Shown here: positions 1 through 30,595 of the stretch, piece by piece | Layout: every line of letters starts with the position of its first letter | How positions within the stretch are numbered: position 1 is the first letter of the stretch | Assembly: GCA_008632985.1 (NCBI GenBank) | Contig: QPGO01000055.1 | Location: 411,100 to 441,694 of the forward strand | Length of the DNA: 30,595 nt | From: Psammoneis japonica | Taxonomy: Eukaryota | Reading direction: 5' to 3' | Translations under genes and position numbers: made by a program | Notes under the pieces: model-generated | Database searches by the model: none | What the model saw: the letters and a program-made list of their open reading frames with translations, nothing else | Told to the model about the DNA's origin: nothing

Positions 1-356
1 GAGTTTTTTCGAAAGGCGGGAGGCGGCTTCAAGTCAGTGCCAAACACTGACTTGCTCCTTGTGTTCATTGTCACCATCGTGTGTGTGTTGGTCACTGTTC
101 TCAATTTTATGACGAGGCAAGCTGCAAATCCTCTGAATGCGTGTTGCTCACTCGGCACACTACGGCAAGGTTCGCATCGAATCCCGAACTCCGATTTGAA
201 TTGTTCACGACCGTCTCAACTCTCTCTTTATGTGGGACAGTCAATCCCACACATGCAAGTCCCGGCAAATTTGAAATTGCCACAACCGCCAAAACCAAAA
301 AAAGGCCCATCGGGGGGGGCTGTTGTGAAGTGTTGGAGCTCAAGATTCCCTTGCAC

Positions 357-405
357 ACCGTTCCAAAAGCGTTCCAAAAGCGTTCCAAAACCGTTCCGAG
401 AACGT
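357..405 (+). repeat. Short 11-bp tandem repeat (CGTTCCAAAAG-like)
   Basis: ccgttccaaaag cgttccaaaag cgttccaaaa ccgttccgagaa; shares the 13-mer CCAAAAGCGTTCC with 785-838. Confidence 0.8.
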
Positions 406-784
406 TCTCGATTGCACCAATTCGCGCGGAAATCAAACTTTGGAGCCTCTTAATCTGGCAATGAGACACATGATGCATTGCAGTTGGTGCACTGTTGTTA
501 GAACCATTTGAGCATGGCACAATGGTGTAAAAGTTTAACAGATTAGATGGATTTATTGCAAAAAGGTGCACCCGTCAAAACAGGTCACCATTTTCTCTAA
601 GAAAAAGAACGGCTGTTAGAAGTCTCAATGATTTTGATTTACAGTGGCTGTGAGTTGAACTGCAAAGTGTTGTTGTAACTGCTGGCATTGTTTGACACTA
701 AACCACATCTACAACAACCGCCAATGGCTCCAACACGGAAATGCCATTCGACGAAATGGGCATTTCATCATTCCCGTGTTTCCA

Positions 785-838
785 CCGTTCCGGGACCGCA
801 CCAAAAGCGTTCCGAAACCGCACCAAAAGCGTTCCCGA
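785..838 (+). repeat. Short 22-bp tandem repeat containing CCAAAAGCGTTCC
   Basis: ccgcaccaaaagcgttcc occurs twice at 22-bp spacing (13-mer at 801 and 823). Confidence 0.8.
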
Positions 839-1032
839 AGGGAATCTCTCTAAAAGGCCTGACATCAGAGCATTGTTTTTAGACGTTGGAAACGAATGAG
901 AACCCCACCCGACCATCAATCCACCTGTGATGCGGCAACAAAAACACTGCTGCACGGAACTGGCGCCGCAGCAATCTTGTCAGCATGTGACATGAAACAT
1001 CATGCGCGCAACACACGTCTGTGTTGCTCACC

Positions 1033-1966
1033 ATGCAAATGCGCCTGCCCAAAGCCACAGCAGATTATCTTGCGGGGACAGTCATCCAGAGGCCGATGAG
1101 GTCACAACGGATTTGGAACCGCAGATTTGCCTCGTGCTTCTGCTCTCCGCGAGACGCAGTGTGTGAGTTGTGGGGCCTTCTTGAAGATGATGGCAACATC
1201 CCACGCGGATTTCTGCCCACTCATTTGTTGCACACATTTTGTTTTCTGAAACTGCATGACACTGAAACCACAATGGCCAGAATCTGCGGTGGCACACACG
1301 AGGATACGTTGAGAAAATGGGTGTGGGTTGGGATGGCGCTAATTGCGAATTTGAACTTGGTGCGTGCCATGACTCCAATTTCTCTTTGAAAATCAATGCA
1401 CTGACATTTGATTCACCATAATTTCATCACAGATTGATTGGGAGAACAGGTTTGTGGATGACAATGGCAGTGCATGCAAGGTGACGGTGGACGGCACTGA
1501 CTTTCGCATCAACGAACCATCGCCGTTCGATCCCATCTGGCATTCGCATGAATTCAACGGCGCAGGGCTCAGGTGCGAAATCGCCACATGCATTCAGACA
1601 GGTTGGACAGTTTGGGTGAATGGCCCCCACCCAGCTGGCATTCCTGATTTGAGCATGGCACGAGAGGCGATCAATTGTGAACTTCAAGATGGAGAGTTTT
1701 GCTCAGCTGATGGGGCATGCAGTGACGGACACCAGTGTTGTGTGGCCCCGACCGGCCTGCGCAATGCCGACCAACACATGAAGACCGTCGCTCGCGCCCG
1801 CCACGAAGCTGTCAACGGTTGGTTCAAGCGCTTCCAAATGATGACAAGAACGTGTCGTCATGATCGATTGACGCATCACCTTGCCTTCCAAGCAGTGGCG
1901 AACATCACACAGCTTTCCATTGTGATGGGACACACACCCTTTGAAGTGGAATGCTCAGATGAACAG
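1033..1966 (+). pseudogene. PIF/Harbinger (IS5-like, DDE_Tnp_4-type) transposase, two exons, degraded by Tyr->His/Cys changes
   Basis: Exon 1 (ATG 1033-1359) has an HTH-like HLLHTFCFLKLHDTE...EDTLRKWVW. Exon 2 (from 1433) reads IDWENRF...VTVDGTDFRINEP...WHSHEFNGAGLRCEI...VNGP...ADGAC...RARHEAVNGWFKRF, with the D-D-E triad in VDGTD / ADG / RHE. End set at CAG 1964-1966, an inferred former TAG; the ORF now reads on to 2077. Confidence 0.85.
1360..1432 (+). other. 73-bp spliceosomal intron in the transposase
   Basis: GTGCGT donor at 1360, CTGAC branch site at 1401, CAG acceptor ending 1432; removal joins ...ANLNL to IDWENRF in frame. Confidence 0.85.
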
Positions 1967-2968
1967 GAACCCATTGAGAAATTAGGACATTTTGCAACAT
2001 TTGTTGTGACATTTCTTTGGTCACAGCTGCAAGAGAGCCAGTTTGTCTTGTCTGCAAAAAATTTTCGTTGGGCTTAGTAATGCATGAGCAAAACAGCAAA
2101 ACTTTGTCCAGCAGTTCGGTCTCAGCGTTAAAAGTTACAATGACTGAGGCTGCTGCTGAATCACCAGACGTGAAGACAACAATGATGTCTCCCACCCAGC
2201 ACGTCAGCTCGTTGGTGGGTCGAATGATGAGCGAGACCAACAGCGATTGAGACGAGAGCACTGACGTCAGGGGTGCGAGCAGTGAGCTTCTGATGCGCAC
2301 GTCACAAGGCGCGACATTTGGCTGCCCCCTCTCTGACTCGCACTCACGTGGTGCCATCCATTGCATGCTCGAGATGATGGACGACCGACATCAGTTGTGC
2401 CCCCCTTTCTCTGCACGACGACTTTTCTTCAGTCAAAATGTTTGAAAACACGTGAAAAACAGGGGAAAATGAAAATTTTGATTTTTCATGCAACCCCCTG
2501 ACAGCGCCTTCGCGTCGTTCACGCCCCGCTTCCCTGAATCGTGTGCATCGCGCACGATGCACACCGATTCAGACCTCTCGTGCTTTTCCCTCGGCAAGAA
2601 CTGCTGCCAGATTCAGCACCACTTGGCGACCGGTTGCCTCCGATGACGTTGACTTTGCCACGAGGTGGGGGGAATGAGAGTTTTGTTCCAAAGTCATGTT
2701 TTAAAACAGAAGAGGAGACACATGCCACAGCAGTGGTCCGTGCACATGAAGAAAAGGTTGCAGATGAAACAAAAAATCAAGAGCATGTTCTCCAATCCAC
2801 CTGTGGTCTTCTGCTGAACTCAAGAGGCACAATCTCGGCAGTGACTCAAAGCTTGCACAATGCCGCAAAGCTTGTTTGATGATTGAGAAACTTGGAATGC
2901 TGCCACATGAGATCAGTCTCAAGCAGGCAGAAATGTTGTCAAAATGCAGCGAGCTGAAGACCGAAGCT

Positions 2969-3461: not shown

Positions 3462-6400
3462 CACTTTTGCGCCCTTTGCGATTTTGCGCCCTTGGCCATT
3501 TTGTGCCCTTTGTGGTTTTGCACCCTTTGTGATTTTGCACCCTTTGTGATTTTGCGCCCTTTGCGATTTTGCACCCTTTGTGATTTTGCACCCTTTGTGA
3601 TTTTGCGCCCTTTGTCATTTTGCACCCTCTGTGATTTTGCACCCTTTGCCACCATTTTGCGCCCTTTGTGATTTTGCACCCTTTGTGATGTTGCGCCCTT
3701 TGTGATTTTGCGCCCTTTGTGATTTTGCACCCTTTGCTGCCATTTTGCGCCCTTTGTGATTTTGAGCCTTTTGCGATTTTGTGCCCTTTGCGATTTTGCA
3801 CCCTTTGTGATTTTGCAAACTTTGCCACCATTTTGTGCCCTTTGTGATTTTGCACCCTTTGCTGCCATTTTGCACTCTTTGCCGCCATTTTGTGCCCTTT
3901 GTGATTTTGCACCCTTTGATGTTTTGCACTCTCTTTGTGATTTTGCACCCTTTGCTGCCATTTTGCGCCCTTTGTGGTTTTGCACACTTTGCCGCCATTT
4001 TGCACCCTTTGCAATTTTGCGCCCTTGGCCATCTCAAGCCCTTGGTCATTTTGCGCCCTTTGTCATTTTGCGCCCATTGTGCCCTTTGTGATTTTGCACC
4101 CTTTGCTGCCATTTTGCGCCCTTTGTGATTTTGAGCCTTTTGCGATTTTGTGCCCTTTGCGATTTTGCACCCTTTGTGATTTTGCACCCTTTGCCGCCAT
4201 TTTGTGCCCTTTGTGATTTTGCACCCTTTGCCGCCATTTTGCACCCTCTGTGATTTTGCGCCCTCTGCGATTTTGCACCCTCTGTGATTTTGCACCCTTT
4301 GCTGCCATTTTGCGCCCTTTGTGGTTTTGCGCCCTTTGCTGAAATTTTGTGCCCTTGGTGATTTTGAGCCTTTTGCGATTTGCACCCTTTGTGATTTTGC
4401 ACCCTTTGCTGCCATTTTGCGCCCTCTGCGATTTTGCACCCTCTGTGATTTTGCACCCTTTGCTGCCATTTTGCGCCCTTTGTGATTTTGCGATTTTGCG
4501 CCCTTTGCGATTTTGCACCCTTTGTGATTTTGCACCCTTTGTGACTTTGCACACTTTGCTGCCATTTTGTGCCCTTTGTGATTTTGAGCCTTTTGCGATT
4601 TTGCGCCCTTTGTGATTTTGCACCCTTTGCTGCCATTTTGTGCCCTCTGCGATTTTGCACCCTCTGTGATTTTGCGCCCTTTGCTGCCATTTTGCGCCCT
4701 TTGTGATTTTGTGCCCTTTGCGATTTTGCACCCTTTGTGATTTTGCACCCTCTGTGACTTTGCACCCTTTGCTGCCATTTTGCACCCTTTGTGATTTTGC
4801 ACCCTTTGCTGCCATTTTGCGCCCTTTGTGATTTTGAGCCTTTTGCAATTTTGCGCCCTTTGTGATTTTGCACCCTTTGCTGCCATTTTGCGCCCTTTGT
4901 GATTTTGCGCATTTTGCGATTTTGCACCCTCTGTGATTTTGCGCCCTTTGTGGCTTTGCACCCTTTGTGGCCATTTTGAACCCTTTGTGATTTTGCACCC
5001 TTTGTGATTTTGCGCCCTTTGCGATTTTGCACCCTTTGCCGCCATTTTGCACCCTCTGTGATTTTGCACCCTTTGTGATTTTGCGCCCTTTGTGATTTTG
5101 CACCCTTTGTGACTTTGCACCCTTTGCTGCCATTTTGCGCCCTTGTGATTTTGAGCCTTTTGCAATTTTGCGCCCTTTGTGATTTTGCACCCTTTGCTGC
5201 CATTTTGTGCCCTTTGCAATTTTGTGCCTTTTGCGATTTTGCACCCTTTGTGATTTTGCACCCTTTGCTGCCATTTTGCGCCCTTTGTGATTTTGCGCAT
5301 TTTGCGATTTTGCACCCTCTGTGATTTTGCGCCCTTTGTGGCTTTGCACCCTTTGTGGCCATTTTGAACCCTTTGTGATTTTGCACCCTTTGTGATTTTG
5401 CGCCCTTTGCGATTTTGCACCCTTTGCCGCCATTTTGCACCCTCTGTGATTTTGCACCCTTTGTGATTTTGCACCCTTTGTGATTTTGCACCCTTTGTGA
5501 TTTTGCACCCTTTGCCGCCATTTTGTGCCCTTTGTGATTTTGCACCCTTTGCCGCCATTTTGCACCCTCTGTGATTTTGTGCCCTCTGCGATTTTGCACC
5601 CTCTGTGATTTTGCACCCTTTGCTGCCATTTTGCGCCCTTTGTGGTTTTGCGCCCTTTGCTGAAATTTTGTGCCCTTGGTGATTTTGAGCCTTTTGCGAT
5701 TTGCACCCTTTGTGATTTTGCACCCTTTGCTGCCATTTTGCGCCCTCTGCGATTTTGCACCCTCTGTGATTTTGCACCCTTTGCTGCCATTTTGCGCCCT
5801 TTGTGATTTTGCGATTTTGCGCCCTTTGCGATTTTGCACCCTTTGTGATTTTGCACCCTTTGTGACTTTGCACACTTTGCTGCCATTTTGTGCCCTTTGT
5901 GATTTTGAGCCTTTTGCGATTTTGCGCCCTTTGTGATTTTGCACCCTTTGCTGCCATTTTGTGCCCTCTGCGATTTTGCACCCTCTGTGATTTTGCGCCC
6001 TTTGCTGCCATTTTGCGCCCTTTGTGATTTTGTGCCCTTTGCGATTTTGCACCCTTTGTGATTTTGCACCCTCTGTGACTTTGCACCCTTTGCTGCCATT
6101 TTGCACCCTTTGTGATTTTGCACCCTTTGCTGCCATTTTGCGCCCTTTGTGATTTTGAGCCTTTTGCAATTTTGCGCCCTTTGTGATTTTGCACCCTTTG
6201 CTGCCATTTTGCGCCCTTTGTGATTTTGCGCATTTTGCGATTTTGCACCCTCTGTGATTTTGCGCCCTTTGTGGCTTTGCACCCTTTGTGGCCATTTTGA
6301 ACCCTTTGTGATTTTGCACCCTTTGTGATTTTGCGCCCTTTGCGATTTTGCACCCTTTGCCGCCATTTTGCACCCTCTGTGATTTTGCACCCTTTGTGAT

Positions 6401-8782
6401 TTTGCACCCTTTGTGATTTTGCACCCTTTGTGACTTTGCACCCTTTGCTGCCATTTTGCGCCCTTTGTGATTTTGAGCCTTTTGCAATTTTGCGCCCTTT
6501 GTGATTTTGCACCCTTTGCTGCCATTTTGTGCCCTTTGCAATTTTGTGCCTTTTGCGATTTTGCGCCCTTTGTGATTTTGCACCCTTTGCTGCCATTTTG
6601 CGCCCTTTGTGATTTTGCGCATTTTGCGATTTTGCACCCTCTGTGATTTTGCGCCCTTTGTGGCTTTGCACCCTTTGTGGCCATTTTGAACCCTTTGTGA
6701 TTTTGCACCCTTTGTGATTTTGCGCCCTTTGCGATTTTGCACCCTTTGCCGCCATTTTGCACCCTCTGTGATTTTGCACCCTTTGTGATTTTGCACCCTT
6801 TGTGATTTTGCACCCTTTGTGATTTTGCACCCTTTGCCGCCATTTTGTGCCCTTTGTGATTTTGCACCCTTTGCCGCCATTTTGCACCCTCTGTGATTTT
6901 GTGCCCTCTGCGATTTTGCACCCTCTGTGATTTTGCACCCTTTGCTGCCATTTTGCGCCCTTTGTGGTTTTGCGCCCTTTGCTGAAATTTTGTGCCCTTG
7001 GTGATTTTGAGCCTTTTGCGATTTGCACCCTTTGTGATTTTGCACCCTTTGCTGCCATTTTGCGCCCTCTGCGATTTTGCACCCTCTGTGATTTTGCACC
7101 CTTTGCCACCATTTTGCACTCTTTGCCGCCATTTTGTGCCCTTTGTGATTTTGCACCCTTTGATGTTTTGCACTCTCTTTGTGATTTTGCACCCTTTGCT
7201 GCCATTTTGCGCCCTTTGTGGTTTTGCACACTTTGCCGCCATTTTGCACCCTTTGCAATTTTGCGCCCTTGGCCATCTCAAGCCCTTGGTCATTTTGCGC
7301 CCTTTGTCATTTTGCGCCCTTTGTGCCCTTTGTGATTTTGCACCCTTTGCTGCCATTTTGCGCCCTTTGTGATTTTGAGCCTTTTGCGATTTTGTGCCCT
7401 TTGCGATTTTGCACCCTTTGTGATTTTGCACCCTTTGCCGCCATTTTGTGCCCTTTGTGATTTTGCACCCTTTGCTGCCATTTTGCACCCTCTGTGATTT
7501 TGCGCCCTCTGCAATTTTGCACCCTCTGTGATTTTGCACCCTTTGCTGCCATTTTGCGCCCTTTGTGGTTTTGCGCCCTTTGCTGAAATTTTGTGCCCTT
7601 GGTGATTTTGAGCCTTTTGCGATTTGCACCCTTTGTGATTTTGCAACCTTTGCTGCCATTTTGCGCCCTCTGCGATTTTGCACCCTCTGTGATTTTGCAC
7701 CCTTTGCTGCCATTTTGCGCCCTTTGTGATTTTGTGATTTTGCGCCCTTTGCGATTTTGCACCCTTTGTGATTTTGCGCCCTTTGTGACTTTGCACACTT
7801 TGCTGCCATTTTGTGCCCTTTGTGATTTTGAGCCTTTTGTGATTTTGTGCCCTTTGTGATTTTGCACCCTTTGCTGCCATTTTGTGCCCTCTGCGATTTT
7901 GCACCCTCTGTGATTTCGCACCCTTTGCTGCCATTTTGCGCCCTTTGTGATTTTGCGCCCTTTGCGATTTTGCACCCTTTGCGATTTTGCACCCTCTGTG
8001 ACTTTGCACCCTTTGCTGCCATTTTGCACCCTTTGTGGTTTTGCACCCTTTGTGATTTTGCACCCTTTGTGATTTTGCACCCTTTGTGACTTTGCACCCT
8101 TTGCTGCCATTTTGCGCCCTTTGTGATTTTGAGCCTTTTGCGATTTTGCGCCCTTTGTGATTTTGCACCCTTTGCTGCCATTTTGCGCCCTTTGTGATTT
8201 TGCGCCCTTTGCGATTTTGCACCCTTTGTGATTTTGCACCCTTTGTGACTTTGCACCCTTTGCTGCCATTTTGCGCCCTTTGTGATTTTGAGCCTTTTGC
8301 GATTTTGCGCCCTTTGTGATTTTGCACCCTTTGTGATTTTGCACCCTTTGTGACTTTGCACCCTTTGCTGCCATTTTGCGCCCTTTGTGATTTTGAGCCT
8401 TTTGCAATTTTGCGCCCTTTGTGATTTTGCGCATTTTGCGATTTTGCACCCTCTGTGATTTTGCGCCCTTTGTGGCTTTGCACCCTTTGTGGCCATTTTG
8501 AACCCTTTGTGATTTTGCACCCTTTGTGATTTTGCGCCCTTTGCGATTTTGCACCCTTTGCCGCCATTTTGCACCCTCTGTGATTTTGCACCCTTTGTGG
8601 CCATTTTGCACCCTTTGTGATTTTGCGCCCTTTGTGATTTTGCGCCCTTTGTGATTTTGCCCCCTTTGTGATTTTGCGCCCTTTGTGATTTTGCACCCTT
8701 TGTGACTTTGCACCCTTTGCTGCCATTTTGCGCCCTTTGTGATTTTGAGCCTTTTGCGATTTTGCGCCCTTTGTGATTTTGC
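3462..8782. repeat. Satellite 1, array 1 (17-bp TTTTGCACCCTTTGTGA and 20-bp TTTTGCACCCTTTGCTGCCA units) with higher-order repeats
   Basis: Continuous tandem units; a landmark variant recurs at 1321/1322-bp and 3244-bp spacing (ORF starts 4349, 5670, 6992, 7593). Confidence 0.97.
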
Positions 8783-10073
8783 ATGATCAGAGACCCGCGG
8801 AAAAGGCCATGAGTCACAGGTCATCGAACCCCGCCATCACATGGTGTGCGCACACACGCAAACATTGGCCAACCCAGCTCCAGAATGGAGTCGACATTGC
8901 TTGTTGGGGGCGCAATGTTTTTGTTTGTTTTTGCTGCACTGATCGGCACATTTCACACTCATTGCTCCCAGGTGCATTTTGTTCAATGTGCACTCATTGA
9001 CTTGCATGCCAACACACCAAGCAACACGGCAGAATTGCTCCTTTGCATCTGAGCAACTGCACTTCGTTCAAACTGAAACATGTTCATTTTCACATTGTGC
9101 GCGCACTTGCGCTGAAAGTGTGGCATTTCCGTCTTCATGACGAACGCCAGTCATTCAGCGAAATTTTCATTTTTTTTGTTTCCCTTTGTGCAAAAAAAAC
9201 CATCCTCGCTGCCAACTCACAATGTTCCTTTTGTGCAGCATTCATCCGGCCAATCGTGCGTGAGGCATTTGACCCCTCCACTTGTGGTCTGCGGACCCAA
9301 TCCCCTGTGCATTTTGTGAGTCAGTGCAGAGCCGCGAAAGTGACATGATGAGGAGTCCATGGATTCTCTGCGCAAGACTGCGCGGGTTCTCCACAAATCA
9401 ATGTTTTAAAGCCCGCTGCGTGCATCATCAAGAGCTGCCAAACAACTCGGCCCCACCATGACAATGAAACGCGACGGCATTGATGCTCACCCCGCCTTTT
9501 GTGAAGCATGTGTGGCCGCCAAGAAACAACAACCAACAGCAAAAAAAAAAGAACAGGCTCCTTCCTTTTGATGCAAGTGGCAAGTTCGTGATTGATCGTT
9601 GATGTGACTGGCCGATGAGTTTGCAGCAAAACACACCTTCAGCATGGGACACACTGCTTCTGATGACATGCGTTCATTGTTGTGGTTGCATCACATGACT
9701 CATTGGTGATTTTTGCTCTGCGAGACTCGGAAGTTGACCCGAATGTGCCGCGTCATGGTCATCGCGGTCGATGACTCGAGAGGTTGGCGAAAGCACATTT
9801 TCCTCGTGCGTGAGCCACGTGGAAATCACTCAGAAAAATGGCTCTTGTTTTTGGATGGAGGGTCTGTTTGAATTCGAGCGCAGGTGTGCAGCCAAATGAA
9901 AAAACGTGCGGGGAGCACTCTTTTCAGGCAAGCAAAAAAACACAAAGAGGGGAAAGGCGCGCAGCACAAAAACAAGTTTTGCTGCAAGTTTTGCTGGGGG
10001 GCTGATGTTGCAAACGGCCGATGATCAAAAGTCTGATGGAGGCATCTTCAAGGCAAGAGATCTCGTGTCAAAG
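8783..10073 (+). repeat. Block B copy 1 (unclassified repeat, internally deleted)
   Basis: Colinear with 11326-12899 (starting offset 2543); lacks ~285 bp present near 12495-12780 and the 12899-13577 tail. Confidence 0.9.
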
Positions 10074-13580: not shown

Positions 13581-13582
13581 CC

Positions 13583-17355: not shown

Positions 17356-17365
17356 GGTCTTTCAA

Positions 17366-17663
17366 TGTGTTTGTCTTCAACATCAAACAAACGGCCAAGT
17401 TTGTGGCACAATCATGCCTCTTGCCACTCAACATTTTTGCAAATGCACCTGCCCTGCACGATTCTTAAGACATTGTAGAATCGCGCTGCAACAAAAAATG
17501 TCAAAAGTTGTTGGATGGATCGCTCAACAAGTGCACCGTAAAATGACACAAAATGTCAAAAAAATCACGCAGAAATCTGCGTGCGCGACATGCGACGTGA
17601 TTCAAAAAACTGTCGATGTCACAGTTCAGCAGTGCGAGGTCCCACCTGGACCTGGAACGTGTC
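17366..17663 (-). mobile_element. MITE family A, truncated copy
   Basis: Reverse complement of 2969 to ~3265; ends GTCCCACCTGGACCTGGAACGTGTC. Confidence 0.85.
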
Positions 17664-17806
17664 AAACATGTCATTCAAAGGAAAACAAACATGTTGTTTC
17701 AAAGAAAACAAACGTGTCTTTTCAAGGAAAACAAACGCGTTGTTTCAAGGAAAACAAACATGTCTTTTTGACAAAAACAAACATGTCTTTTCAAGAAAAA
17801 CAAACA
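17664..17806 (-). repeat. Satellite 2, inverted short array
   Basis: TCAAGGAAAACAAACATG units. Confidence 0.9.
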
Positions 17807-18733: not shown

Positions 18734-18734
18734 C

Positions 18735-19347: not shown

Positions 19348-19593
19348 ACAAACCAAGGATTGTGCGGCAATGCAATCACAGATTGGCACATGGCAACAAG
19401 GTGGAGGCAGAAATGGCGATGTGGACACAGTGAAAAATGGCACACATGATTCTCAACAAGTTGTTGTGACATTGGCACAGCAAACTTGCAACCAGTGGTT
19501 GGCCTGTCATTGTGCGACAACACTTTTTTGCAACATTTTGACAAATTGTCGTCATGCAAATCCACACATTTTTAACATTTCGTGCACTCTGAT

Positions 19594-20460
19594 GCGTGTG
19601 TTGTGCACAGCATCATCACACAGCATTTGTCCAACTCTCCCTCTCATTGCAGGATGGGTTGTTGCCATGTGGCGCATCTGCACAGTGGACTTGCGAATTT
19701 GACCATGCACTCCCTCTGTCAGGCAGGATGGGTTGGTGCCATGTGGCGCATCCGGCCAAGGGAGGAGTGGGTTCAAAGCCCAGCCGCCCACCCCGGATGG
19801 GGTTGGAAAGGGGCAGGCCGAGAAAGAAAAGGAGGCTTGGATTTGAGGCCAATTCGAGCCAGCGACCTCAGGAAGCACAAAGACTCACAACCACTCAGAA
19901 CGCTGCACACTGTCCTGGCGAGTGCAGGAGGTTCTCAACAACCCAAGAGGCAAAGAAGTTGCCACTCGGCTGGCTGTTGAGTCCCTTCTCCGCGCACACA
20001 TTTGGGCGTGTGTTGTGCACAGCATCGTCACACAGCATTTGTCCAACTGTCCCTCTTGTTGCAGGGTGGGTTGTCACCATGTGGCGCATCCGCACGGAGG
20101 ACTCATGAATTTGACCATGCACTCCCCATGTTGGCAGGATGGGCCAGCGCCATGTGGCGCATCCGGCCAAGGGAGGAGCGGGCTCAAAGCCCAGCCGCCC
20201 ACCCTGGATGGGGTTGGAAAGGGGCAGGCTGAGAAAGAAAAGGAGGCTTGGATTTGAGGCTGATTCAAGCCAGCGACCTCAGGAAGCGCAAAGACTCACA
20301 ACCACTCAGAGCACTGCACACTGTCCTGGCGAGTGCAGGAGGTTCTCAACAACCCAAGAGGCAAAGAAGTTGCCACTCAGCCAGCTGTTGAGCCCCTTCT
20401 CCGCACACACATTCAGGCATGTGTTGTGCACAGCATCATCACACAGCATTTGTCCAACTG
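19594..20460 (+). repeat. ~412-bp tandem repeat (about 2.1 units)
   Basis: GCRTGTGTTGTGCACAGCATC starts at 19594, 20006 and 20417. Confidence 0.9.
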
Positions 20461-21148
20461 AACATGTCCTTTCAAGGAAAACAAGCATGTTTTCCTTGAA
20501 AAGACATGTTTGTTTTCCTTAAAAAGACATGTTTGTTTTCAGGACATGTTTGTTTTCATTGAAAAGACATGTTCGTTTTCCTTGAAACCACATGTTCGTT
20601 TTCCTTGAAACAACACGTTTGTTTTCCTTGAAAAGACACATTTTTTTCCTTGAAACGACACGTTTGTTTTCCTTGAAAAGACATGTTTGTTTTCCTTGAA
20701 ACGACATGTTTGTTTTCCTTGAAAAGATGTGTTTGTTTTCCCTGAAAAGACACACTTGTTTTCCTTGAAAACACATGTTTGTTTTCCTTGAAACAACATG
20801 CTTGTTTTCCTTGAAAAGACATGTTTGTTTTCCTTAAAAAGACATGTTTGTTTTCAAGACATGTTTGTTTTCATTGAAAAGACATGTTTGTTTTCCTTGA
20901 AACCACATGTTTGTTTTCCTTGAAATGACACGTTTGTTTTCCCTGAAACGACGTGTTTGTTTTCTTTGAAATGACATGTTTGTTTTCCTTGAAATGACAT
21001 GTTTGTTTTCATTGAAAAGACATGTTTGTTTTCCTTGAAAACACACGTTTGTTTTCCTTGAAACGACATGTTTGTTTTCCTTGAAAAGACATTTTTTTCC
21101 CCTTGAAACGACATGTTTGTTTTCCTTGAAAAGACATGTTTGTTTTCA
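20461..21148 (+). repeat. Satellite 2 array
   Basis: Tandem 23-bp units. Confidence 0.96.
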
Positions 21149-23332
21149 CCAATCAAAGAGAGAGAGGGAAGAGATGTCGGGTGTTGAACCTGTCACCTCC
21201 TCTTCTGGGACTCGTCCTCCCATGTCTGACACACTGGCTGCAATCATGCATCGGATGTCACATGCCCATTTGGCACTGTGTGACCAAAGTCGTCTGTGAG
21301 CGCCAGTCCAGCGCAGAGTCACACGGACTCTTTTCTTCAACTCACGAATGGATGCCTCGGCCAGGTTCTGCCAGGGGCTGCATGGAGTGAACACCTCCTG
21401 GTGCATCCTGCATTCCTTGCAGATCTCCTTGGTCTGGCCTTCTGCCATTTCCGGCGCGCCATCCGACACAAGGACCTGCGGTGTGCCAACGTCATGCACA
21501 AATGACATGACGGCATCTGGGTGGTCCTGTTTCCTCTTCCAAGGATGGAACCTGTCACACCCTCTTCCGTTGGCAAGTGCGCTTCCTCCCATCTTGCCAT
21601 GTGTCGATTTGACCTTTGAAAACATCTGGTCGGAGTGGAGTCGTCCCTTGACAGCAGGGAACTTGAGCCAAGGGGCTTTCTTCCGGACTTTCCGTTCGGA
21701 TGGTGTGCAGACATTGCGGACCCCTGCCTGGGTCATCACTCTGATGGTGTTCTCAGCAGCCGTCAGGCCAATGTTCCACCTTTTAGAGAGTGTCTTGGGC
21801 GCGACAGTTGATGCACGACTCAAGGTCGACAGTGCATGCACCCGTTTCCGCTCGGCACAATCCAGGTGGACATCCAGGTCATGCCGGTCGTGTGGCCCCT
21901 CTCCCTCAGTGTCGTTGTGGGAGACATTCGCCTGAGCAACCATGCGGCGATGCAATGAATTGTCGTCATCAGTGTCCACAATGACGCTCTCGTCATGACA
22001 GGACATTTGGTTTGAATGAATGGAAGCAACACACCTGGCCACATTCATTGTCGTCGACCATCCGCCCGACTTTGCTGATCCTTGGCGCACACTGGCACAT
22101 GCACGCGCTTCCTCCTTTTGCGCCATGGCATCAGCAGAAGGCTCCCATCTCGGGGGTGATGTGAGTTCCAGCCAGGGGAGGTTCTCCAGATCCTCATTTG
22201 TTGGCTCGTGTGAATCAAAGACAGAAGCAACGCCTCTTGTTCGCAGCGGCACCCTGATCTTCAAGTCAGGGAAAGCAGTGGAGTGCGTGCCAGTCGGATC
22301 AAACTGGCAAGGGGTGTCGTGGACAATCAGCCCATTTGCTCGCAGTTGGTTGGGGCACAGAAGGGTGTTGGTCATCTTGTCCCCAAAAAACATGGCCTCG
22401 TGGACTGGCAGCAAGCGCGGCTGTCCATCAGTTGGATCAACCCACACGGCAGCAGCCATGCAAACAGGAGTGTTTTCCATTGGCGCGTGCTCTTCGGAGT
22501 GGGGGTGCACCACGACAGTTCTGTCGATGTCAGAGCACATCACAAAATTGGACCCAACAGCACACGTGTCAGCGCGCGAGTCTAAGTCAGTGGTGGCTTC
22601 GTCATCTGAATTTCCAGCAGATGACAAAGAGACACGCACATCCTTTGAGAATCACCCAGACAAACAAACAGTGCCAGCAGGTTTGGCGACATTTGGTTCT
22701 GTGCCTTTCAGTGCTGGCGCAACTGTTCATTCCTCATTCTGAGGTTTCTCATGTGCGCTGCATCCAAACTGGGTGCCTGCATTGGCGGCAGGTTCATCAG
22801 GCTCGTCGGAGTCTTTCGGTGCATCAGCAGGTTGAGTGGCAGGCTCGGCAACAGCCGCTTTCTTTACAGCGAGAGTTTCGGCATCGACCGACTCAGCTTC
22901 CAAGGACACAGCAGCAGCTTTGCATTTCTTTTTGGCCTTCTTGGCGTCGCGGAGCTTTTGGACTTGCTCTTGCTCGGGACCGTCAAGAGCACTCCGGTCA
23001 GAGATGCCCTTCAGAAAGTCAGAGACCTTCTTGGTCTCGGCCACCAGTTCATCAAGCTCAGACAAGTCGTTGCGAGCCTTTTGATGACGCTGAATGTGCT
23101 GGTCAAATGCAAATCGACCCCGTCCGGTGCAATTCGCGGCAGCAATCTGTGCATGAGCACGGTTCTTTTGGGTGGTGGTGGCAGCTGATCCTTCCGCCTG
23201 CCTCTCAAGTGCAAAGAAAGCAGTGCGACCATCGCGGCTGCGATTGGAAGGTTTGACAAAAGCCCATCCGGGCCCCCCCCCATCACTGACTTCTTCAGGA
23301 GATCATGCAGACGTTGCCTGTCCTGCGCATGC
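21149..23332 (-). mobile_element. Ty1/copia (CoDi-like) fragment: gag, protease, integrase; no RT or LTR
   Basis: Gag PGWAFVK...DGRTAFFALERQAEG...ETKKVSDFLKGISD...NAGTQFG; protease DLDSRADTCAVGSN; TLLCPNQLRANG; LSKRWNIGL; integrase LHSDQMF...DVGTPQVLVSDGA...PCSPWQNLAEASIRELK...TPDIS; cut by satellite 2 on the left and the LINE duplicate on the right. Confidence 0.92.
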
Positions 23333-23838
23333 TGGCTGGAATGCTCGTGCGGCTCTGGTGAAACGTCACTCACAACAGCATGTTGACACAGTCAAACTGG
23401 TCCATGACTTGCTGCCGACTGACAAGATCGCAAATCAACACAACCCAGTTCGACCGCGCCAATGCATCACATGTGAGCATCCGATGGAAGACAGGGACCA
23501 CATGCTTTGGTGTCCAAACAACGAACAGTGGAGAAGGAAGTTCCTGCAGGGTCTTTGATGCTGCTGCGACAAGATCGATGCTGTGCCTGCTCTCCGAGAC
23601 TTCCTCCTGGACATGCTTCAAGCCTGGTTTGATGACGAAATGACGTGCTTCGACAATGTGGGCTGTCGATGCAAGGAACTTTGGTGAGCTCAATTGGGCG
23701 TTGGTTGGAGACAGGTTTTCAATGGCAGATGCTCGCACATGTGGAATCTTTTGCAATCCGGACACCTGCGTGATTCTGGCATTCTACGACAATGTCAGGA
23801 AGAAAACAAACAGCCACCAGATTGGACGGTTCAGATCG
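23333..23838 (+). mobile_element. LINE 3' fragment (duplicate)
   Basis: CITCEHPMEDRDHMLWC zinc finger; copy of 16850-17355. Confidence 0.8.
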
Positions 23839-23848
23839 GGTCTTTCAA

Positions 23849-24146
23849 TGTGTTTGTCTTCAACATCAAACAAACGGCCAAGTTTGTGGCACAATCATGC
23901 CTCTTGCCACTCAACATTTTTGCAAATGCACCTGCCCTGCACGATTCTTAAGACATTGTAGAATCGCGCTGCAACAAAAAATGTCAAAAGTTGTTGGATG
24001 GATCGCTCAACAAGTGCACCGTAAAATGACACAAAATGTCAAAAAAATCACGTAGAAATCTGCGTGTGCGACATGCGACGTGATTCAAAAAACTGTCGAT
24101 GTCACAGTTCAGCAGTGCGAGGTCCCACCTGGACCTGGAACGTGTC
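23849..24146 (-). mobile_element. MITE family A, truncated copy (duplicate)
   Basis: Copy of 17366-17663. Confidence 0.85.
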
Positions 24147-24316
24147 AAACATGTCGTTTGAAGGAAAACAAACATGTTGTTTCAAAGAAAACAAACGTGT
24201 CTTTTCAAGGAAAACAAACATGTCTTTTCAAGGAAGGAAAACAAATGCGTTGTTTCAAGGAAAACAAACATGTCTTTTTGACAAAAACAAACATGTCTTT
24301 TCAAGAAAAACAAACA
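24147..24316 (-). repeat. Satellite 2, inverted short array
   Basis: As 17664-17806 with ~27 extra bp. Confidence 0.9.
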
Positions 24317-25243
24317 ACTTGGAGCACGCCAAGAAAGCCTTGATGACAGTTGGCCGTTTTGGCATTTAACTCAGGCGAGCCATCCAGTTCAGGCCTGTTT
24401 CCCAAGCTCAAGGGCGTCGACGCATTTGTCGGAAGACACCTGTCAATTTGCTTGAGCTCCAACTCAACATCAGCCAATGCCCATTTGACTCAAAGGTCAG
24501 AGGACATGGCCCAGCGTGCCTTGCTTTCCAAGTCAGACAACTGGCACTTTCTGATCTGGGTGCCCAAGTGCTCCTCCGGCTCGCGAACACTTCTGTCCGT
24601 GAGCGTGCACCCAGTGCTCACTCAACCCATGATCTTGAAGTTGCGGACCCCTGCCTGGGCGTCACTCTGAGGGTGTTCTTGGCAGCCGTCAGACCAATGA
24701 TCCACCTCTTGGAGAGCATCTCTGGCGTGACAGTTGATGCACGACTCAAGGTCAACAGTGCATGCACCCCTTTCCACTTGGCACAATCCAGGTGGACGTC
24801 CAGATTGTTCCGTTCATGTGGCCGGTCTCCCCCAGTGTCATTGTGAGATGCGCTGGCCTGAGCAGCCAAGCAGCGATGCAGAGAATCGTCATCATTTGCA
24901 CCCACAATGACGCTCTCATTGTGATGGGATGTCTGACACGAACAAGCCGAAGCAATGCACCTGGTTGCACTCATCATTGTCACCCTGATTTTCAAGTCAA
25001 GGAAAACAACAGAGTGCGCGCTGTTGGGATCAAACTGGCGAGGGGTGTCGTGGACAGTTGGCTCACTTGCTCACAGTTGGCTGGGGCACAGCAGGGTGTC
25101 AGTCATTCTTTCCCTGAAAAAAACAGCCTCGTGGGCTGGCAGTGGGCGTGGCTGTCCATTGGCTGGATCAACCCACATGGCAGCAGCCGCGCAAATGGGG
25201 ACATTCCTCATTGGCGCACACTCTTCGGAGCAAGGATGCACTG
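24317..25243 (-). mobile_element. Ty1/copia deletion derivative (duplicate)
   Basis: Copy of 17807-18733 at offset 6510. Confidence 0.85.
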
Positions 25244-25244
25244 C

Positions 25245-25858
25245 AGCCCGAGACTTCAGGCAGTGTTGAAGAGAACGGGCACGCAGGCAGCGCATGGTGT
25301 GCTGAAACCAGAAGAGGAGAAGGTGGCTGGAAATGATCTCTTTCCACAGGTGAAGTTTCTCAGCCCGTCAGAATTGGCAAGCAATGGGAGCATCTCAATG
25401 TTTGTCAAGAAACAGATTGCTGGTGGCAACATGGACACTTCAAATTGGTCAGGAACTTGGGAGGAATGGGCAAAAAAGGTGGCAAAAAGGCAGGTTGACA
25501 ATCTCAGAAACACGGTGTGTTCGGCTGTTGGGGCGGAGGCAATGGCCCGCAAGTTGGGTGACCAATGTGTGTGACTCGAGAGTTGCGCGCATCTCACAAG
25601 AAGATGACAGTGATGCTTTGTCTGTGCAGGCGTTGTCACCAAGGAAGAGGGAAAGGAAAAAGAAAAGAAACTCAAGGCGGCAGTCAAGAGGAAAAAGCAA
25701 GGCAGGAAAAAGTCAAGCCATGACAAGAATGAAAAGAAAGACATCCCGATTGTGCCGACATGGGATCCGCCCAGCCCAGACACTGTGGCCGGCAGCAAAT
25801 GAAGGAACAAGCAGGCACGCAAGCGGTTCTGTGATCACACCCCTGTTTGCAAAAATTG
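25245..25858 (+). pseudogene. 5'-truncated copy of the unknown two-exon gene (duplicate)
   Basis: Copy of 18735-19347. Confidence 0.6.
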
Positions 25859-26104
25859 ACAAACCAAGGATTGTGCGGCAATGCAATCACAGATTGGCAC
25901 ATGGCAGCAAGGTGGAGGCAGAAATGGCGATGTGGACACAGTGAAAAATGGCACACATGATTCTCAACAAGTTGTTGTGACATTGGCACAGCAAACTTGC
26001 AACCAGTGGTTGGCCTGTCATTGTGCGACAACACTTTTTTGCAACATTTTGACAAATTGTCGTCATGCAAATCCACACATTTTTAACATTTCGTGCACTC
26101 TGAT

Positions 26105-26972
26105 GCGTGTGTTGTGCACAGCATCATCACACAGCATTTGTCCAACTCTCCCTCTCATTGCAGGATGGGTTGTTGCCATGTGGCGCATCTGCACAGTGGA
26201 CTTGCGAATTTGACCATGCACTCCCTCTGTCAGGCAGGATGGGTTGGTGCCATGTGGCGCATCCGGCCAAGGGAGGAGTGGGTTCAAAGCCCAGCCGCCC
26301 ACCCCGGATGGGGCTGGAAAGGGGCAGGCCGAGAAAGAAAAGGAGGCTTGGATTTGAGGCCAATTCGAGCCAGCGACCTCAGGAAGCACAAAGACTCACA
26401 ACCACTCAGAACGCTGCACACTGTCCTGGTGAGTGCAGGAGGTTCTCAACAACCCAAGAGGCAAAGAAGTTGCCACTCGGCTGGCTGTTGAGTCCCTTCT
26501 CCGCGCACACATTTGGGCGTGTGTTGTGCACAGCATCGTCACACAGCATTTGTCCAACTGTCCCTCTTGTTGCAGGGTGGGTTGTCACCATGTGGCGCAT
26601 CCGCACGGAGGACTCACGAATTTGGCCATGCACTCCCCATGTTGGGCAGGATGGGCCAGCGCCATGTGGCGCATCCGGCCAAGGGAGGAGCGGGCTCGAA
26701 GCCCAGCCGCCCACCCCGGATGGGGTTGGAAAGGGGCAGGCTGAGAAAGAAAAGGAGGCTTGGATTTGAGGCCAGTTCAAGCCAGCGACCTCAGGAAGCG
26801 CAAAGACTCACAACCACTCAGAGCACTGCACACTGTCCTGGCGAGTGCAGGAGGTTCTCAACAACCCAAGAGGCAAAGAAGTTGCCACTCAGCCAGCTGT
26901 TGAGCCCCTTCTCCGCACAAACATTCAGGCATGTGTTGTGCACAGCATCGTCACACAGCATTTGTCCAACTG
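26105..26972 (+). repeat. ~412-bp tandem repeat (duplicate)
   Basis: Copy of 19594-20460. Confidence 0.9.
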
Positions 26973-28697
26973 AACATGTTTGTTTTCCTTGAAATGACAC
27001 GTTTGTTTTCCTTGAAAAGACATGTTTGTTTTCCTTGAAAAGACATGCTTGTTTTCTTTGAAACGACATGTTTGTTTTCCTTGAAACGACATGTTTGTTT
27101 TCATTGAAAAGACATGTTTGATTTCCTTGAAACGACATGTTTGTTTTCCTTGAAACGACATGTTTGTTTTCCTTGAAAAGACACATTTGTTTTCCTTGAA
27201 ACAACATGTTTGTTTTCCTTGAAATGGTGTGTTTGTTTTCCTTGAAACAACATGTTTGTTTTCCTTGAAACGACATGTTTGTTTTCCTTGAAAAGACACA
27301 TTTGTTTTCTTTGAAACAACATGTTTGTTTTCCTTGAAATGGCACGCTTGTTTTCCTTGAAACGACATGTTTGTTTTCCTTGAAAACACACAATTGTTTT
27401 CCTTGAAACAACATGATTGTTTTCCTTGAAATGGCATGTTTGTTTTCTTTGAAATGACGTGCTCATTTTCCTTGAAACAACATGTTTGTTTTCCTTGAAA
27501 AGACGTGTTTGTTTTCCTTGAAACCACATGTTTGTTTTCCTTGAAACCACATGTTTGTTTTCCTTAAAATGACATGTTTGTTTTCCTTGAAACGACATGT
27601 TTGTTTTCATTAAAAAGACATGTTTGTTTTCTTTGAAACGAAATGTTTGTTTTCCTTGAAAAGACATGTTTGTTTTCCTTGAAAAGACATGTTTGTTTTC
27701 CTTGAAACGACATGTTTGTTTTCATTGAAAAGACATGTTTTATTTCCTTGAAACGACATGTTTGTTTTCCTTGAAACGACGTGTTTGTTTTCCTTGAAAA
27801 GACACATTTGTTTTCCTTGAAACAACATGTTTGTTTTCCTTGAAATGGCATGTTTGTTTTCCTTGAAACGACATGTTTGTTTTCCTTGAAACCACATGTT
27901 TGTTTTCCTTGAAATGACACATTTGTTTTCCTTGAAACGACATGTTTGTTTTCATTAAAAAGACACGCTTGTTTTCTTTGAAACGAAATGTTTGTTTTCC
28001 TTGAAGAGACATGTTTGTTTTCCTTGAAAAGACGTGTTTGTTTTCTTTGAAACCACACGTTTGTTTTCCTTGAAATGACATGTTTGTTGTCCTTGAAAAG
28101 ACATTTTTTTCTCCCTTGAAACGACATGTTTGTTTTCCTTGAAACAACATGTTTGTTTTCCTTGAAAAGACACGCCAGTTTTCAAGACATGTTTGTTTTC
28201 CTTGAAATGACATGTTTGTTTTCATTGAAAAGACATGTTTGTTTTCCCTGAACAGACGTGTTTGTTTTCCTTGAAACGACGCGATTGTTTTTTTTGAAAT
28301 GACACATTTGTTTTCCTTGAAAAGACATGTTTGTTTTCCTTGAAAAGACATGTTTGTTTTCTTTGAAATGACACATTTGTTTTCCTTGAAAAGACATGTT
28401 TGTTTTCCTTGAAACGACACGTTTGTTTTCCTTGAAAAGACATGTTTGTTTTCCTTGAAACGAAGTGTTTGTTTTCCTTGAAAAGACACGTTTGTTTTCC
28501 TTGAAACGACACACTTGTTTTCCCAGAAAAGACGTGGTTGTTTTCATTGAAACCACGTGTTTGTTTTCCTTGAAACGCCGCACTTGTTTTCCTTGAAAAG
28601 ACATTTTTTTCCCTTGAAGCGACACGCTTGTTTTCCTTGAAACGACACGTTTGTTTTCCTTGAAAAGACATGTTTGTTTTCAAGACATGTTTGTTTG
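26973..28697 (+). repeat. Satellite 2, longest array
   Basis: ~1.7 kb of 23-bp units. Confidence 0.97.
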
Positions 28698-28754
28698 ACC
28701 TTGACACTGAAGTCTTCTCTGCAGACAGGCCCAAGCCCCGCTCTGGCACTCAAC

Positions 28755-29040
28755 TCACCTTGCGCGTGCAAAAGCACCCTGATTTTCAAGTCAGGGAAAA
28801 CAACAGAGTGTGCGCTGTTGGGGTCAAACTGGCGAGGGGCGTCGTGGACAGTCAGCTCACTTGCTCACAGTTGGCTGGGGCACAGCAGGGTGTCAGTCAT
28901 TCTTTCCCTGAAAAACACAGCCTCGTGGGCTGGCAGTGGGCGTGGCTGTCCATTGGCTGGATCAACCCATGTGGCAGCAGCCACGCAAATGGGGACATTC
29001 CTTGTTGGCGCGCACTCTTCGGAGCAAGGATGCGCTGCAG
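28755..29040 (-). mobile_element. Ty1/copia protease-region fragment
   Basis: HPCSEECAP...WVDPANGQP...HEAVFF...TLLCPSQL; homologous to ~18470-18733 and ~22250-22510. Confidence 0.8.
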
Positions 29041-29161
29041 CAGCGTGGTTGCTGACAACAATTTGTTCAATGTTGTGGAGAAAAATGGAGTGGCTGGCTG
29101 TCTCAACATGACCCAAATGACAGCTGCGCTGTCGAGCAGCAATGCTCCTCTCATTGTTGCT

Positions 29162-29420
29162 GGCCTGTTCCAGCTCCAGGTGCTCTGCTTTTCATCACGC
29201 GAGAGGCCCATTTTCTGCGCAGTTCAGTGCAATTGACTCCTTCAATTTTGATCGTTTCGAAAATCAAAAGGTGAGTGCACACCCGAAAATGCACGCAAAG
29301 TGCACACTCACCCTTTGATTTGGCAAAAAACGGATTTGGAAAAGTCAATTGCGCCAAATGCACAAATTTCCAAATGGCGGGAATCGAACCCGCGCGGAGC
29401 ACCTGGAGCTGGAACAGGCC
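29162..29420. mobile_element. MITE family B (259 bp)
   Basis: Perfect 24-bp TIR GGCCTGTTCCAGCTCCAGGTGCTC (29162-29185, 29397-29420); TGCT on both sides. Confidence 0.88.
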
Positions 29421-29438
29421 TGCTGTGAAAAGATCAAG

Positions 29439-30094
29439 ATGTCGTCTCCAGCACCACCGGCAAAGAAGAGAAAGAAAAATGAGGCTGTTGAGCCAATGAG
29501 CCTGAGACTTCAGGCAGTGTTGAAGAGAATGGGCGTGCAGGCAGCACGTGGTGCGCTGAAGCCAGAAGTGGAGAAGGTGGCTGGAAGTGATCTCTTTTCA
29601 CAGGTGAAGTTTCTCAGTCCATCAGAATTGGCAAGCAGTGGGAGCGCCTCAATGTTTGTCAAGAAACAGATTGCTGGCGGCAATGTGGACACTTCAAATT
29701 GGTCAGGAACTTGGGAGGAATGGGCAAAAGAGGCGGCAAAAAGGCAAGTTGACAATCTCAGAAACATGGTGTGCTCGGATGTTGGGGCGGAGGCAATGGC
29801 CCGCAAGTTGGGTGACCAATGTGTGTGACTCGAGAGTTGCGCGCATCTCGCAAGAAGATGATGGTGATGCTTTGTCTGCACAGGCGTTGTCGCCAAGGAA
29901 GAGGGAAAGGAAAAAGAAAAGAAACTCAAGGCGGCAGTCAAGAGGAAAAAGCAGGAAAAAGTCAAGCCGTGACAAGAGCGAAAAGAAAGACGTCCCGATT
30001 GTGCCGACATGGGACCCGCTTGGCCCAGACACTGTCGCTGGCAGCAAACGAAGGAACAAGCAGGCACGCAAGTGGTTCTGTGATCACACCCCTG
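29439..30094 (+). pseudogene. Unknown two-exon gene with N-terminal basic NLS-like motif, truncated by the telomere-like array
   Basis: ATG 29439 MSSPAPPAKKRKK...LFSQVKFL...WEEWAKE...LRN; intron 29803-29883 (GCAAGT...CAG) splices in frame to RVVAKEEGKEKEKK; frameshift near 29950 relative to the other copies. Confidence 0.6.
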
Positions 30095-30595
30095 GGGGGG
30101 TCAGGGTTGGGGTCAGGGTTGGGGCCAGGGTTGGGGTCAGGGTCAGGGTCAGGGTTGGGGCCAGGGGTCAGGGTTGGGGGTTGGGGTTGGGGCCAGGGTT
30201 GGGTTGGGTTGGGGTTGGGGTCAGGGTTGGGGTGGTTGGGGCTGGGGTTGGGGCCAGGGTTGGGGCCAGGGTTGGGGCTGGGTTGGGGCCAGGGGTTGGG
30301 GTTGGGGTTGGGGGTGGGGTCAGGGTTGGGGTTCAGGGTCAGGGTCAGGGTTGGGGTTGGGTTGGGGTTGGGGTTTGGGGCCAGGGCCAGGGTTGGGGTT
30401 GGGGTTTGGGGTTGGGGTTGGGGCCAGGGTTGGGGTTGGGGTTGGGGTTGGGGTTGGGGTTGGGGTTGGGGTGGGGTTGGGGTCAGGGTCAGGGTTGGGG
30501 TTGGGGGTTGGGGTCAGGGTTGGGGTCAGGGTTGGGGTCAGGGTTGGGGTTGGGGTCAGGGTGGGGTTGGGGATTGGGTTGGGGGTTGGGGTCAG
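30095..30595 (+). repeat. Degenerate telomere-type hexamer array (GGGTTG / GGGTCA / GGGCCA)
   Basis: G-rich strand runs 5'->3' toward the window end; ~6-bp period; no GGGTTA unit. Confidence 0.88.

Follow-up and report, generated by a model that had tools for sequence, protein, structure and literature searches.

Near-total loss of TpA, with the mark of conversion to CpA and TpG, in a repeat-rich window from Psammoneis japonica

Introduction

A stretch of 30,595 nucleotides from Psammoneis japonica (GenBank assembly GCA_008632985.1, contig QPGO01000055.1, positions 411,100 to 441,694 of the forward strand), hereafter called the window, contains the remnant of a DNA transposase of the Harbinger/PIF type, an integrase-like frame, arrays of two satellites, several duplicated units and a telomere-like array, and the dinucleotide TpA (TA) is nearly absent throughout. 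A first-pass annotation had attributed this absence to a repeat-directed, "reverse" form of fungal RIP (repeat-induced point mutation), in which TA would become CA or TG. The analysis described here bears out the direction of that change, gives no support to the repeat-directed trigger, and probably places the window beside the TpA hypermutation described for integrated foreign DNA in the alga Bigelowiella natans (Mettrop et al., bioRxiv 10.64898/2026.01.13.699255).

Extent of the TA Loss and Make-up of the Locus

The whole window holds 64 TA against 1954.6 expected from its base composition, which corresponds to an observed/expected ratio of 0.033 at a GC content of 48.6%. The ratios of the other dinucleotides were 1.65 for CA, 1.56 for TG, 0.62 for CG, 0.79 for AT, 1.46 for AA and 1.54 for TT, and the early remark that AT, TT and AA are common is thus correct. 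The first-pass annotation had also arrived at about 40 TA after position 2200, and at none in 3462-8782 or in the last ~2.6 kb; the computed count is 38, the TA-free segment runs from 3276 to 9407, and no TA occurs beyond 27956. Even at a ratio of 0.35, the lowest found among 80 control loci, the Poisson probability of observing 64 TA or fewer is about 1e-205.

By using bins of 1 kb, it was found that the TA ratio is 0.25 in the first kilobase, which is the maximum, about 0.08 in the next two and between 0 and 0.085 in all others, while the CA+TG ratio ranges from 1.4 to 1.9, with a value of 1.21 in the final partial bin, which holds the terminal array. The TA counts per kilobase from the left end (17, 5, 5 and 3) show a density that is higher leftward, and this rise suggests that the boundary of the affected domain lies just beyond the left side of the window. 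When the satellites were excluded, the remaining 18.6 kb still contained 57 TA only (ratio 0.052), so the TA-free tandem units are not the source of the effect. The B. natans preprint defines a TpA-poor cluster as at least three consecutive 1-kb windows with a TpA ratio of 0.43 or less and a CpA+TpG ratio of at least 1.52 (Mettrop et al., bioRxiv 10.64898/2026.01.13.699255). Under this rule the window qualifies as a cluster, with TpA at or below 0.25 in 31 of 31 bins and CA+TG at or above 1.52 in 25 of 31, among them the 24 bins that follow one another without a gap between 3001 and 27000, by a CA+TG formula that may deviate slightly from that of the preprint.

The stop codons of the plus strand comprise 33 TAA, 13 TAG and 782 TGA, and 91 open frames of at least 120 codons were counted over the six frames. 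Long spurious open frames appear in all six frames because TAA and TAG are nearly gone, and gene callers would over-predict in TA-erased regions, since two of the three stop codons contain TA.

The features that could be delimited are collected in Table 1. Besides these, tandem-repeat analysis revealed a 411-bp unit, twice repeated, at two places, and in the 23-base satellite a few monomers retain TA where the consensus has TG. The two copies of the 4.3-kb segmental duplicate show 12 CA/TG doublets in 4.1 kb and 37 differences of CG versus CA/TG, and the pair 8784-9955 and 11327-12498 shows six CA/TG doublets. A Pfam scan of 96 stop-to-stop frames outside the satellites returned only a weak DDE_Tnp_4 match and one spurious match to a domain of unknown function (DUF), and a looser scan of 12 further frames gave nothing usable. 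Among the 96 frames no reverse-transcriptase match was obtained at E<=0.01, and the looser scanning gave only a weak zf-RVT match (E 0.043). Of the sequence classes named in the first-pass annotation, the DNA transposase (Harbinger/PIF-type), the two satellites and the telomere-type array hold, the long interspersed nuclear element (LINE) was not confirmed, and the copia label had a weak basis. No family was found by an Rfam search of the window and no tRNA gene by ARAGORN; short likenesses to a tRNA T-arm in reverse orientation occur at 13430-13500 and 29375-29400, possibly as remnants of the short interspersed nuclear element kind.

Table 1. Features of the window, in window positions
Feature	Position	Strand	Remarks
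TA-erased domain	1..30595	none	TA observed/expected 0.033; bins <=0.25
Harbinger/PIF-type DDE transposase remnant (DDE_Tnp_4)	1412..2074	+	Tyrosine absent; homologues, alignment
17-base satellite	3465..8783	+	~302 copies, no TA; tandem-repeat analysis
17-base satellite, further arrays	10079-11326, 13587-14673, 15064-15530		Tandem-repeat analysis
Repeat unit, duplicated at 10074-12498	7509-9955		2.4 kb, 85.9% identical; non-satellite part 8784..9955 (+)
23-base satellite	26974..28681	+	~75 copies; tandem-repeat analysis
23-base satellite, further arrays	15531-16107, 20488-21147		Tandem-repeat analysis
23-base satellite, short inverted arrays	17663-17806, 24146-24316		Tandem-repeat analysis
Segmental duplicate, copy 1	16847..21147	+	95.8% identical to 23330-27677 (4.3 kb, self-comparison)
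Segmental duplicate, copy 2	23330..27677	+	Contains the high-copy repeat at 23853-24130
Integrase-like retroelement frame (putative), 501 codons open	21149..22651	-	Tyrosine absent; 24 homologues
Telomere-like array	30096..30595	+	G-rich strand to window end; period 6 at 30104-30592

Direction of the Change in Two Element Genes

The transposase frame matches Pfam PF13359 under the cut-off (E 0.0025, 17.9 bits against 24.8), and its identity is established by 113 homologues (best E 9e-75), many of which carry PF13359, and by 33 invariant alignment columns. The second frame has no Pfam match of its own. It has 24 homologues with identity of up to 51%, of which five were tested; four of these match rve, only at E 0.007-0.15 and below the cut-off, and the profile of the homologues matches PFV integrase at E 0.007. 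A protein-atlas lead (0.89) points to rve/gag_pre-integrs clusters with neighbours from Bacillariophyta. Judged from these sequence matches, the frame would be an integrase-like retroelement, possibly of the copia type. The named homologues of both elements are diatom proteins of 30-44% identity, and no protein named from B. natans is found among the 24 homologues of the integrase-like frame or the 113 of the transposase.

Neither frame contains a tyrosine (Tyr), which makes up 2-4.6% of the homologues. In the transposase all five conserved Tyr columns have become Cys (TGC or TGT), whereas 94 of the remaining 117 conserved columns are unaltered. For the integrase-like frame, 14 homologues entered the alignment, a conserved Tyr column being one with Tyr in at least 60% of them; its nine such columns hold His (6), Cys (1), Arg (1) and Asn (1), with no Tyr, against 169 of 216 other conserved columns identical. 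Taken together, Tyr is kept in 0 of 14 conserved columns, 12 of which are now His or Cys, in comparison with 263 of 333 other conserved columns identical (Fisher p 1e-9). The codons at the converted columns are CAC, CAT, TGC and TGT, each one transition away from TAC or TAT. As these columns now read CAY or TGY, the ancestral sequence had TA, which then changed to CA or TG, and the direction proposed at first reading is thereby confirmed; the loss affects both strands and unrelated classes of sequence. With so little other decay, and with a frame of 501 codons still free of stops, this is the profile of specific hypermutation and not of age.

The same codons bear on an explanation by selection, in which TA would be avoided as a nuclease or transposon target, or by GC-biased gene conversion. 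GC-biased conversion is usually strong in subtelomeres, and the subtelomeric position and the GC content of the window would suit it. However, AA, TT and AT are abundant and TA alone is lost, a TpA-only pattern that refutes conversion; the destruction of conserved Tyr codons in the elements' own genes is damage rather than adaptation; and the satellites and dead elements are under no selection at the codon level. This explanation is hardly conceivable.

Editing of adenosine to inosine in double-stranded transcripts by an ADAR-like enzyme, fixed through the reverse transcription of retroelements, would also produce Tyr to His or Cys changes such as those of the integrase-like frame, and a preference of ADAR for an upstream U is mentioned in the discussion of the B. 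natans preprint (Mettrop et al., bioRxiv 10.64898/2026.01.13.699255). Nevertheless, the DNA transposon, the two satellites, the 411-bp unit and the telomere-like array are erased too and have no RNA stage, and both strands are affected, which leaves RNA editing scarcely credible.

Sequence Context and Strand Polarity

The TA that survive are not distributed at random with respect to their flanks. In the non-satellite sequence after position 2200, 13 of 31 surviving TA stand in TTAA, whereas the corresponding flanks are found at 7% of the CA/TG sites (odds ratio 9.6, p 8e-8), which suggests that the mutator disfavours TpA with a 5' T and a 3' A.

A polarity of strands may also be present. The gene on the plus strand has Cys in place of Tyr, and the one on the minus strand has His, which in both cases means A to G on the plus strand, with a plus-strand ratio of TG to CA of 11:1 (p 0.006), and further plus-strand ratios of 47:26 and 8:2 were obtained in the terminal array and in the listed read comparisons described below. 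The bulk non-satellite counts show no TG excess (1762 TG, 1969 CA). A polarity favouring A to G on the plus strand, toward the chromosome end, is accordingly kept as a lead only.

A published study (PMC13746701) describes an unusual abundance of AC/GT dinucleotide repeats in B. natans, as in some other Rhizaria, and conversion of (TA)n to (CA)n or (TG)n could contribute to them. The window itself holds only six short runs of the AC/GT type, of 4-5 units each.

Converted and Unconverted Copies in Sequencing Reads

Four runs (X1 to X4), all from one sample and one study, were available as contigs and were compared with positions 21148-26104 of the window. In X1, 8684 contigs align to this segment, 1304 of them at 99% identity or more, and 554 places of substitution (466 transitions) stand against 25 places of insertion or deletion. 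Among the 40 of these 554 differences that were listed, ten pair TA in the reads with TG (8) or CA (2) in the window, and the opposite direction is not seen; 12 pair CG in the reads with CA or TG in the window, with the reverse at three, and one listed site is a CA/TG doublet.

At the ten listed sites where the window has CA or TG, copies bearing TA make up 14-98% of the X1 depth. At position 21637, in a conserved column, 3941 of the 4022 units of read depth have TAC (Tyr) and the window has CAC (His). The TA-bearing variants of the high-copy repeat at 23853-24130 reach 14-92% of the depth at eight sites, and many copies keep both TA and CG. The sample thus has converted and unconverted copies of the same repeats, with the window copy among the most converted, and the existence of paralogous copies with TA at the same sites indicates that the loss is not a genome-wide bias. 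CpG decay accompanies the erasure of TA, as expected if the locus is methylated heterochromatin.

The loss had been tied to the locus or to the repeat state; its dependence on the locus is supported by the TA-bearing paralogues in the reads, and its targeting to repeats is not, as TA persists in many further copies of these repeats. To be repeated is therefore not sufficient for conversion, and a single-copy region is reported as a target in B. natans (Mettrop et al., bioRxiv 10.64898/2026.01.13.699255).

The reads are also the place to consider an artefact, in which a modification of TpA, and 5-methylcytosine at CpG, in heterochromatin were miscalled in long reads, so that the true DNA keeps TA, the telomere keeps TTAGGG and the elements may be intact. 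TpA is palindromic, and a strand-specific miscall would turn one strand into CA and its complement into TG; the window also has CA or TG where other copies have CG, and the runs come from one sample with their platform off the record. However, X2 to X4 contain contigs, 150-430 bases long, with 1-16 differences from the TA-free window, and the same runs have TA-rich loose ends, which indicates that the platform can read TA. Contigs of 6-9 kb were obtained from very small runs, a length that noisy reads would not yield, and together with the dominance of substitutions over insertions and deletions we infer from this an accurate platform. The internal duplicates resolve most sites alike, with so few CA/TG doublets between the copies; copies with Tyr turned to His or Cys occur in proteins from ENA contigs of about 1 kb; and the mutations in B. 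natans were confirmed by Illumina and by Sanger sequencing, according to the preprint (Mettrop et al., bioRxiv 10.64898/2026.01.13.699255). Such an artefact is, on balance, decidedly improbable.

Relatives in Public Proteins and Metagenomes

Among 140 public proteins, two relatives of the transposase from short ENA contigs (P0094 and P0108) have no Tyr, and the Tyr columns are occupied by His or Cys. P0108 belongs to a cluster at 90% identity in which one and the same column holds His or Cys depending on the member, and in which one member retains Tyr at another column; such a mixture is predicted if TA went to CA or to TG independently in different copies. Two proteins of one cluster (P0028 and P0146) differ at 13 of 170 residues, of which seven are changes of Tyr to His (6) or Cys (1), so that 7 of 10 Tyr are affected against 6 of 160 other residues (p 3e-7). 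The proteins P0094, P0108 and P0141-P0146 come from ENA contigs of 558-1115 bases and are Tyr-free or half-converted copies of Harbinger transposases. Such copies in anonymous contigs suggest that the process can be tracked in environmental data through a screen for Tyr to His or Cys changes.

In 80 metagenome loci that encode relatives, the TA ratio was 0.35-0.99. These normal values, together with the Tyr content of the homologues, indicate that TA loss is not a trait of the family. No erased relative was found among the 80 loci, an absence of little meaning, as one of the two search patterns demanded Phe or Tyr. The lowest ratios belong to L063 and L040 (0.35 and 0.37, with CA+TG of 1.38-1.42), which may be partly converted.

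The Terminal Telomere-like Array

The array at the end of the window consists of 83 units, of which 47 are of the TTG type, 17 are TCA, 9 are CCA and 10 are other; none is TTA. This mix is the expected product of TTAGGG repeats under conversion of TA to CA or TG. The order of the units is near random, as C-type units are followed by 18 G and 6 C and G-type units by 22 G and 16 C, and a 12-base alternating telomerase template, considered as the origin of the array, was dropped on this ground. A neighbouring A appears to be converted on the same strand, as CCA accounts for 9 of 26 YCA units and CTG for 2 of 49 xTG units (p 8e-4). At another locus, an X1 loose end has this mix of TTGGGG and TCAGGG attached to the 23-base satellite, which backs a real conversion of telomeres only if X1 is a short-read run.

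In favour of the miscall described above, the units of this array are irregular and accompanied by insertions and deletions, as is typical of a noisy consensus. Nanopore basecallers are described as miscalling CCCTAA arrays as CCCTGG, to which the CCA units are equal, and the current profile of TTAGGG resembles that of TTGGGG; this miscall could partly explain the array. Furthermore, the rate measured in B. natans, roughly 1e-6 per site per generation, is far too slow for a telomere that is renewed by telomerase, so that the full conversion of the array is unexplained by it, and canonical TTAGGG repeats are found in B. natans itself, as stated in a published study (PMC13746701). A much faster action at chromosome ends, recombination between ends already converted, or an artefact are possible.

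A joint reading of these signals may be put forward tentatively, and is itself rather unlikely. The mutator would act on telomeric DNA, much faster at ends than in B. natans, and the real telomeres would be a random mix of TTGGGG, TCAGGG and CCAGGG in which an adjacent A is co-converted, with A to G favoured on the lagging-strand template, whose 5' to 3' direction leads to the chromosome end. If true, this would point to a single-strand-specific DNA adenine deaminase at replication forks or telomeric overhangs in heterochromatin.

Discussion

The explanation that best accommodates these results, and that we regard as likely, is a locus-targeted hypermutation of TpA to CpA or TpG at a chromosome end, of the kind known from B. 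natans. The window would be the subtelomeric end of a eukaryotic, probably protist, chromosome, filled with dead mobile elements, satellites and segmental duplicates, in which a process aimed at the locus would have turned nearly every TpA into CpA or TpG, an A:T to G:C change on either strand, with ordinary CpG decay running alongside. All Tyr codons would have been destroyed in this way and the reading frames left otherwise largely intact. The process would belong with the TpA hypermutation that B. natans shows in viral and transposon DNA integrated in its genome; its chemistry, by analogy, would most likely be the enzymatic deamination of adenine preceded by T, and a role in defence, with targeting by chromatin state or foreignness, may be presumed. 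The data establish the direction of the change, its specificity, its dependence on the locus and independent sightings in public data.

Several points weigh against this explanation, besides those raised for the terminal array. The runs X1 to X4 come from one sample, with the platform off the record, and may be the data behind the assembly, in which case they are no independent support. The share of sampled window words (31-mers) contained in X1, 0.49, is not decisive alone, given that about a quarter of the 31-mers are estimated to be free of converted sites. The directions of the read differences rest on the 40 listed among 554, and the metagenome control search tended to miss erased copies, since its peptide patterns demanded Phe or Tyr at one position.

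As for the chemistry, a different route is conceivable, in which the thymine of TpA would be oxidised by enzymes of the JBP/TET type to 5-hydroxymethyl- or 5-formyluracil, which mispairs with G, or in which repair at TpA would be error-prone, and no adenine would be deaminated. Thymine-modifying enzymes prefer TpA in some protists, and the T to C and A to G routes give identical products, which the window cannot separate. Nothing in the present data favours it, and the U-A substrate context of the tRNA adenosine deaminases fits TpA. An ADAT2-like enzyme appears as a candidate in the B. natans preprint, which by analogy would speak for adenine (Mettrop et al., bioRxiv 10.64898/2026.01.13.699255). 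This other chemistry is considered unlikely.

Should the hypermutation of TpA be what shaped the window, the locus displays it at saturation, at a chromosome end and in element genes without any Tyr codon that are otherwise intact. In the search for the enzyme, guidance can be taken from the strict dependence on TpA, the relative resistance of TTAA, the co-conversion of an adjacent A and the possible polarity of strands. Erased regions also defeat annotation by profiles, as illustrated by a transposase that falls below the Pfam cut-off and an integrase-like frame without a match.

Comparison with Known Systems

The first-pass annotation knew of no named system for such a change, a statement superseded by the B. 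natans preprint, which is also the only report of TpA-specific A:T to G:C hypermutation that the literature search returned. The preprint describes mutation-accumulation lines in which 231 of 302 nuclear point mutations fell in integrated giant-virus and virophage regions; 230 of these 231 were A to G or T to C, all of them on TpA, and Sanger sequencing bore out those single-nucleotide mutations that were rechecked, a subset of the total. The rate was about 6e-7 per site per generation, a thousandfold over the background, and was seen in some lines only. The genome contains 124 clusters of TpA-poor, CpA+TpG-rich windows, and there are 324 predicted coding sequences in which the TpA frequency is 0.0018 against 0.041 and in which DDE-endonuclease and reverse-transcriptase domains are enriched. 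The authors propose that an ADAT2-like enzyme deaminates adenine and thereby defends the cell against foreign DNA, citing activity of ADAT2 on DNA in amphioxus and trypanosomes (Mettrop et al., bioRxiv 10.64898/2026.01.13.699255). The strand-symmetric A to G (T to C) process at TpA suggested for the window from its sequence has therefore been measured elsewhere, and its proposed chemistry and purpose coincide with those of the preprint.

The likeness between the two is close. In both, TpA goes exclusively to TpG or CpA, on both strands, with CA+TG rising as TA falls; the effect is, for the window probably, local rather than genome-wide and touches sequences of DDE transposases and retroelements; and the low-TpA coding sequences of B. 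natans are as extreme as the window. The window differs in being near saturation over at least 30 kb of subtelomere, including satellites and a telomere-like array, neither of which the accessible text mentions, and the survival of TTAA, the possible strand polarity and the co-conversion of an adjacent A are seen here and are not reported for B. natans in the accessible text.

Fungal RIP resembles the present case in its dinucleotide-specific transitions, the inactivation of mobile elements, the strong skew and the unequal mutation of copies. Its trigger is the presence of duplicated sequence in the sexual cycle, and it relies on enzymes akin to cytosine methyltransferases. However, it converts CpA to TpA and so creates TA, whereas the window destroys it, and with a TA ratio of 0.033 and a CA ratio of 1.65 RIP was rejected as the process at work. 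The repeats of the window, moreover, have many escaping copies, and in B. natans a single-copy region is hit.

The APOBEC3/AID enzymes, cytosine deaminases that edit retroelements and viruses (PMC4866542), offer another parallel in the context-specific deamination of DNA against foreign elements, which leaves fossil hypermutated copies, but they target C, with G to A or C to T changes in TC or CC, and act mostly on single-stranded intermediates of reverse transcription. The window has instead A:T to G:C changes at TpA, also in sequence that was never reverse-transcribed.

ADAT2/3 and TadA, together with their DNA-editing derivatives, act on an A preceded by U or T, in agreement with the requirement for TpA, and the natural substrate of the tRNA adenosine deaminase presents the context U33-A34. 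To our knowledge, natural chromatin-targeted deamination of adenine in DNA has not been demonstrated. As a genome defence of eukaryotes, targeted hypermutation of DNA from A:T to G:C would stand apart from RIP and from APOBEC; the evidence for it otherwise consists of a single preprint on one alga, and the window would add a new, near-saturated and extreme example of a process so far described once, in B. natans in 2026.

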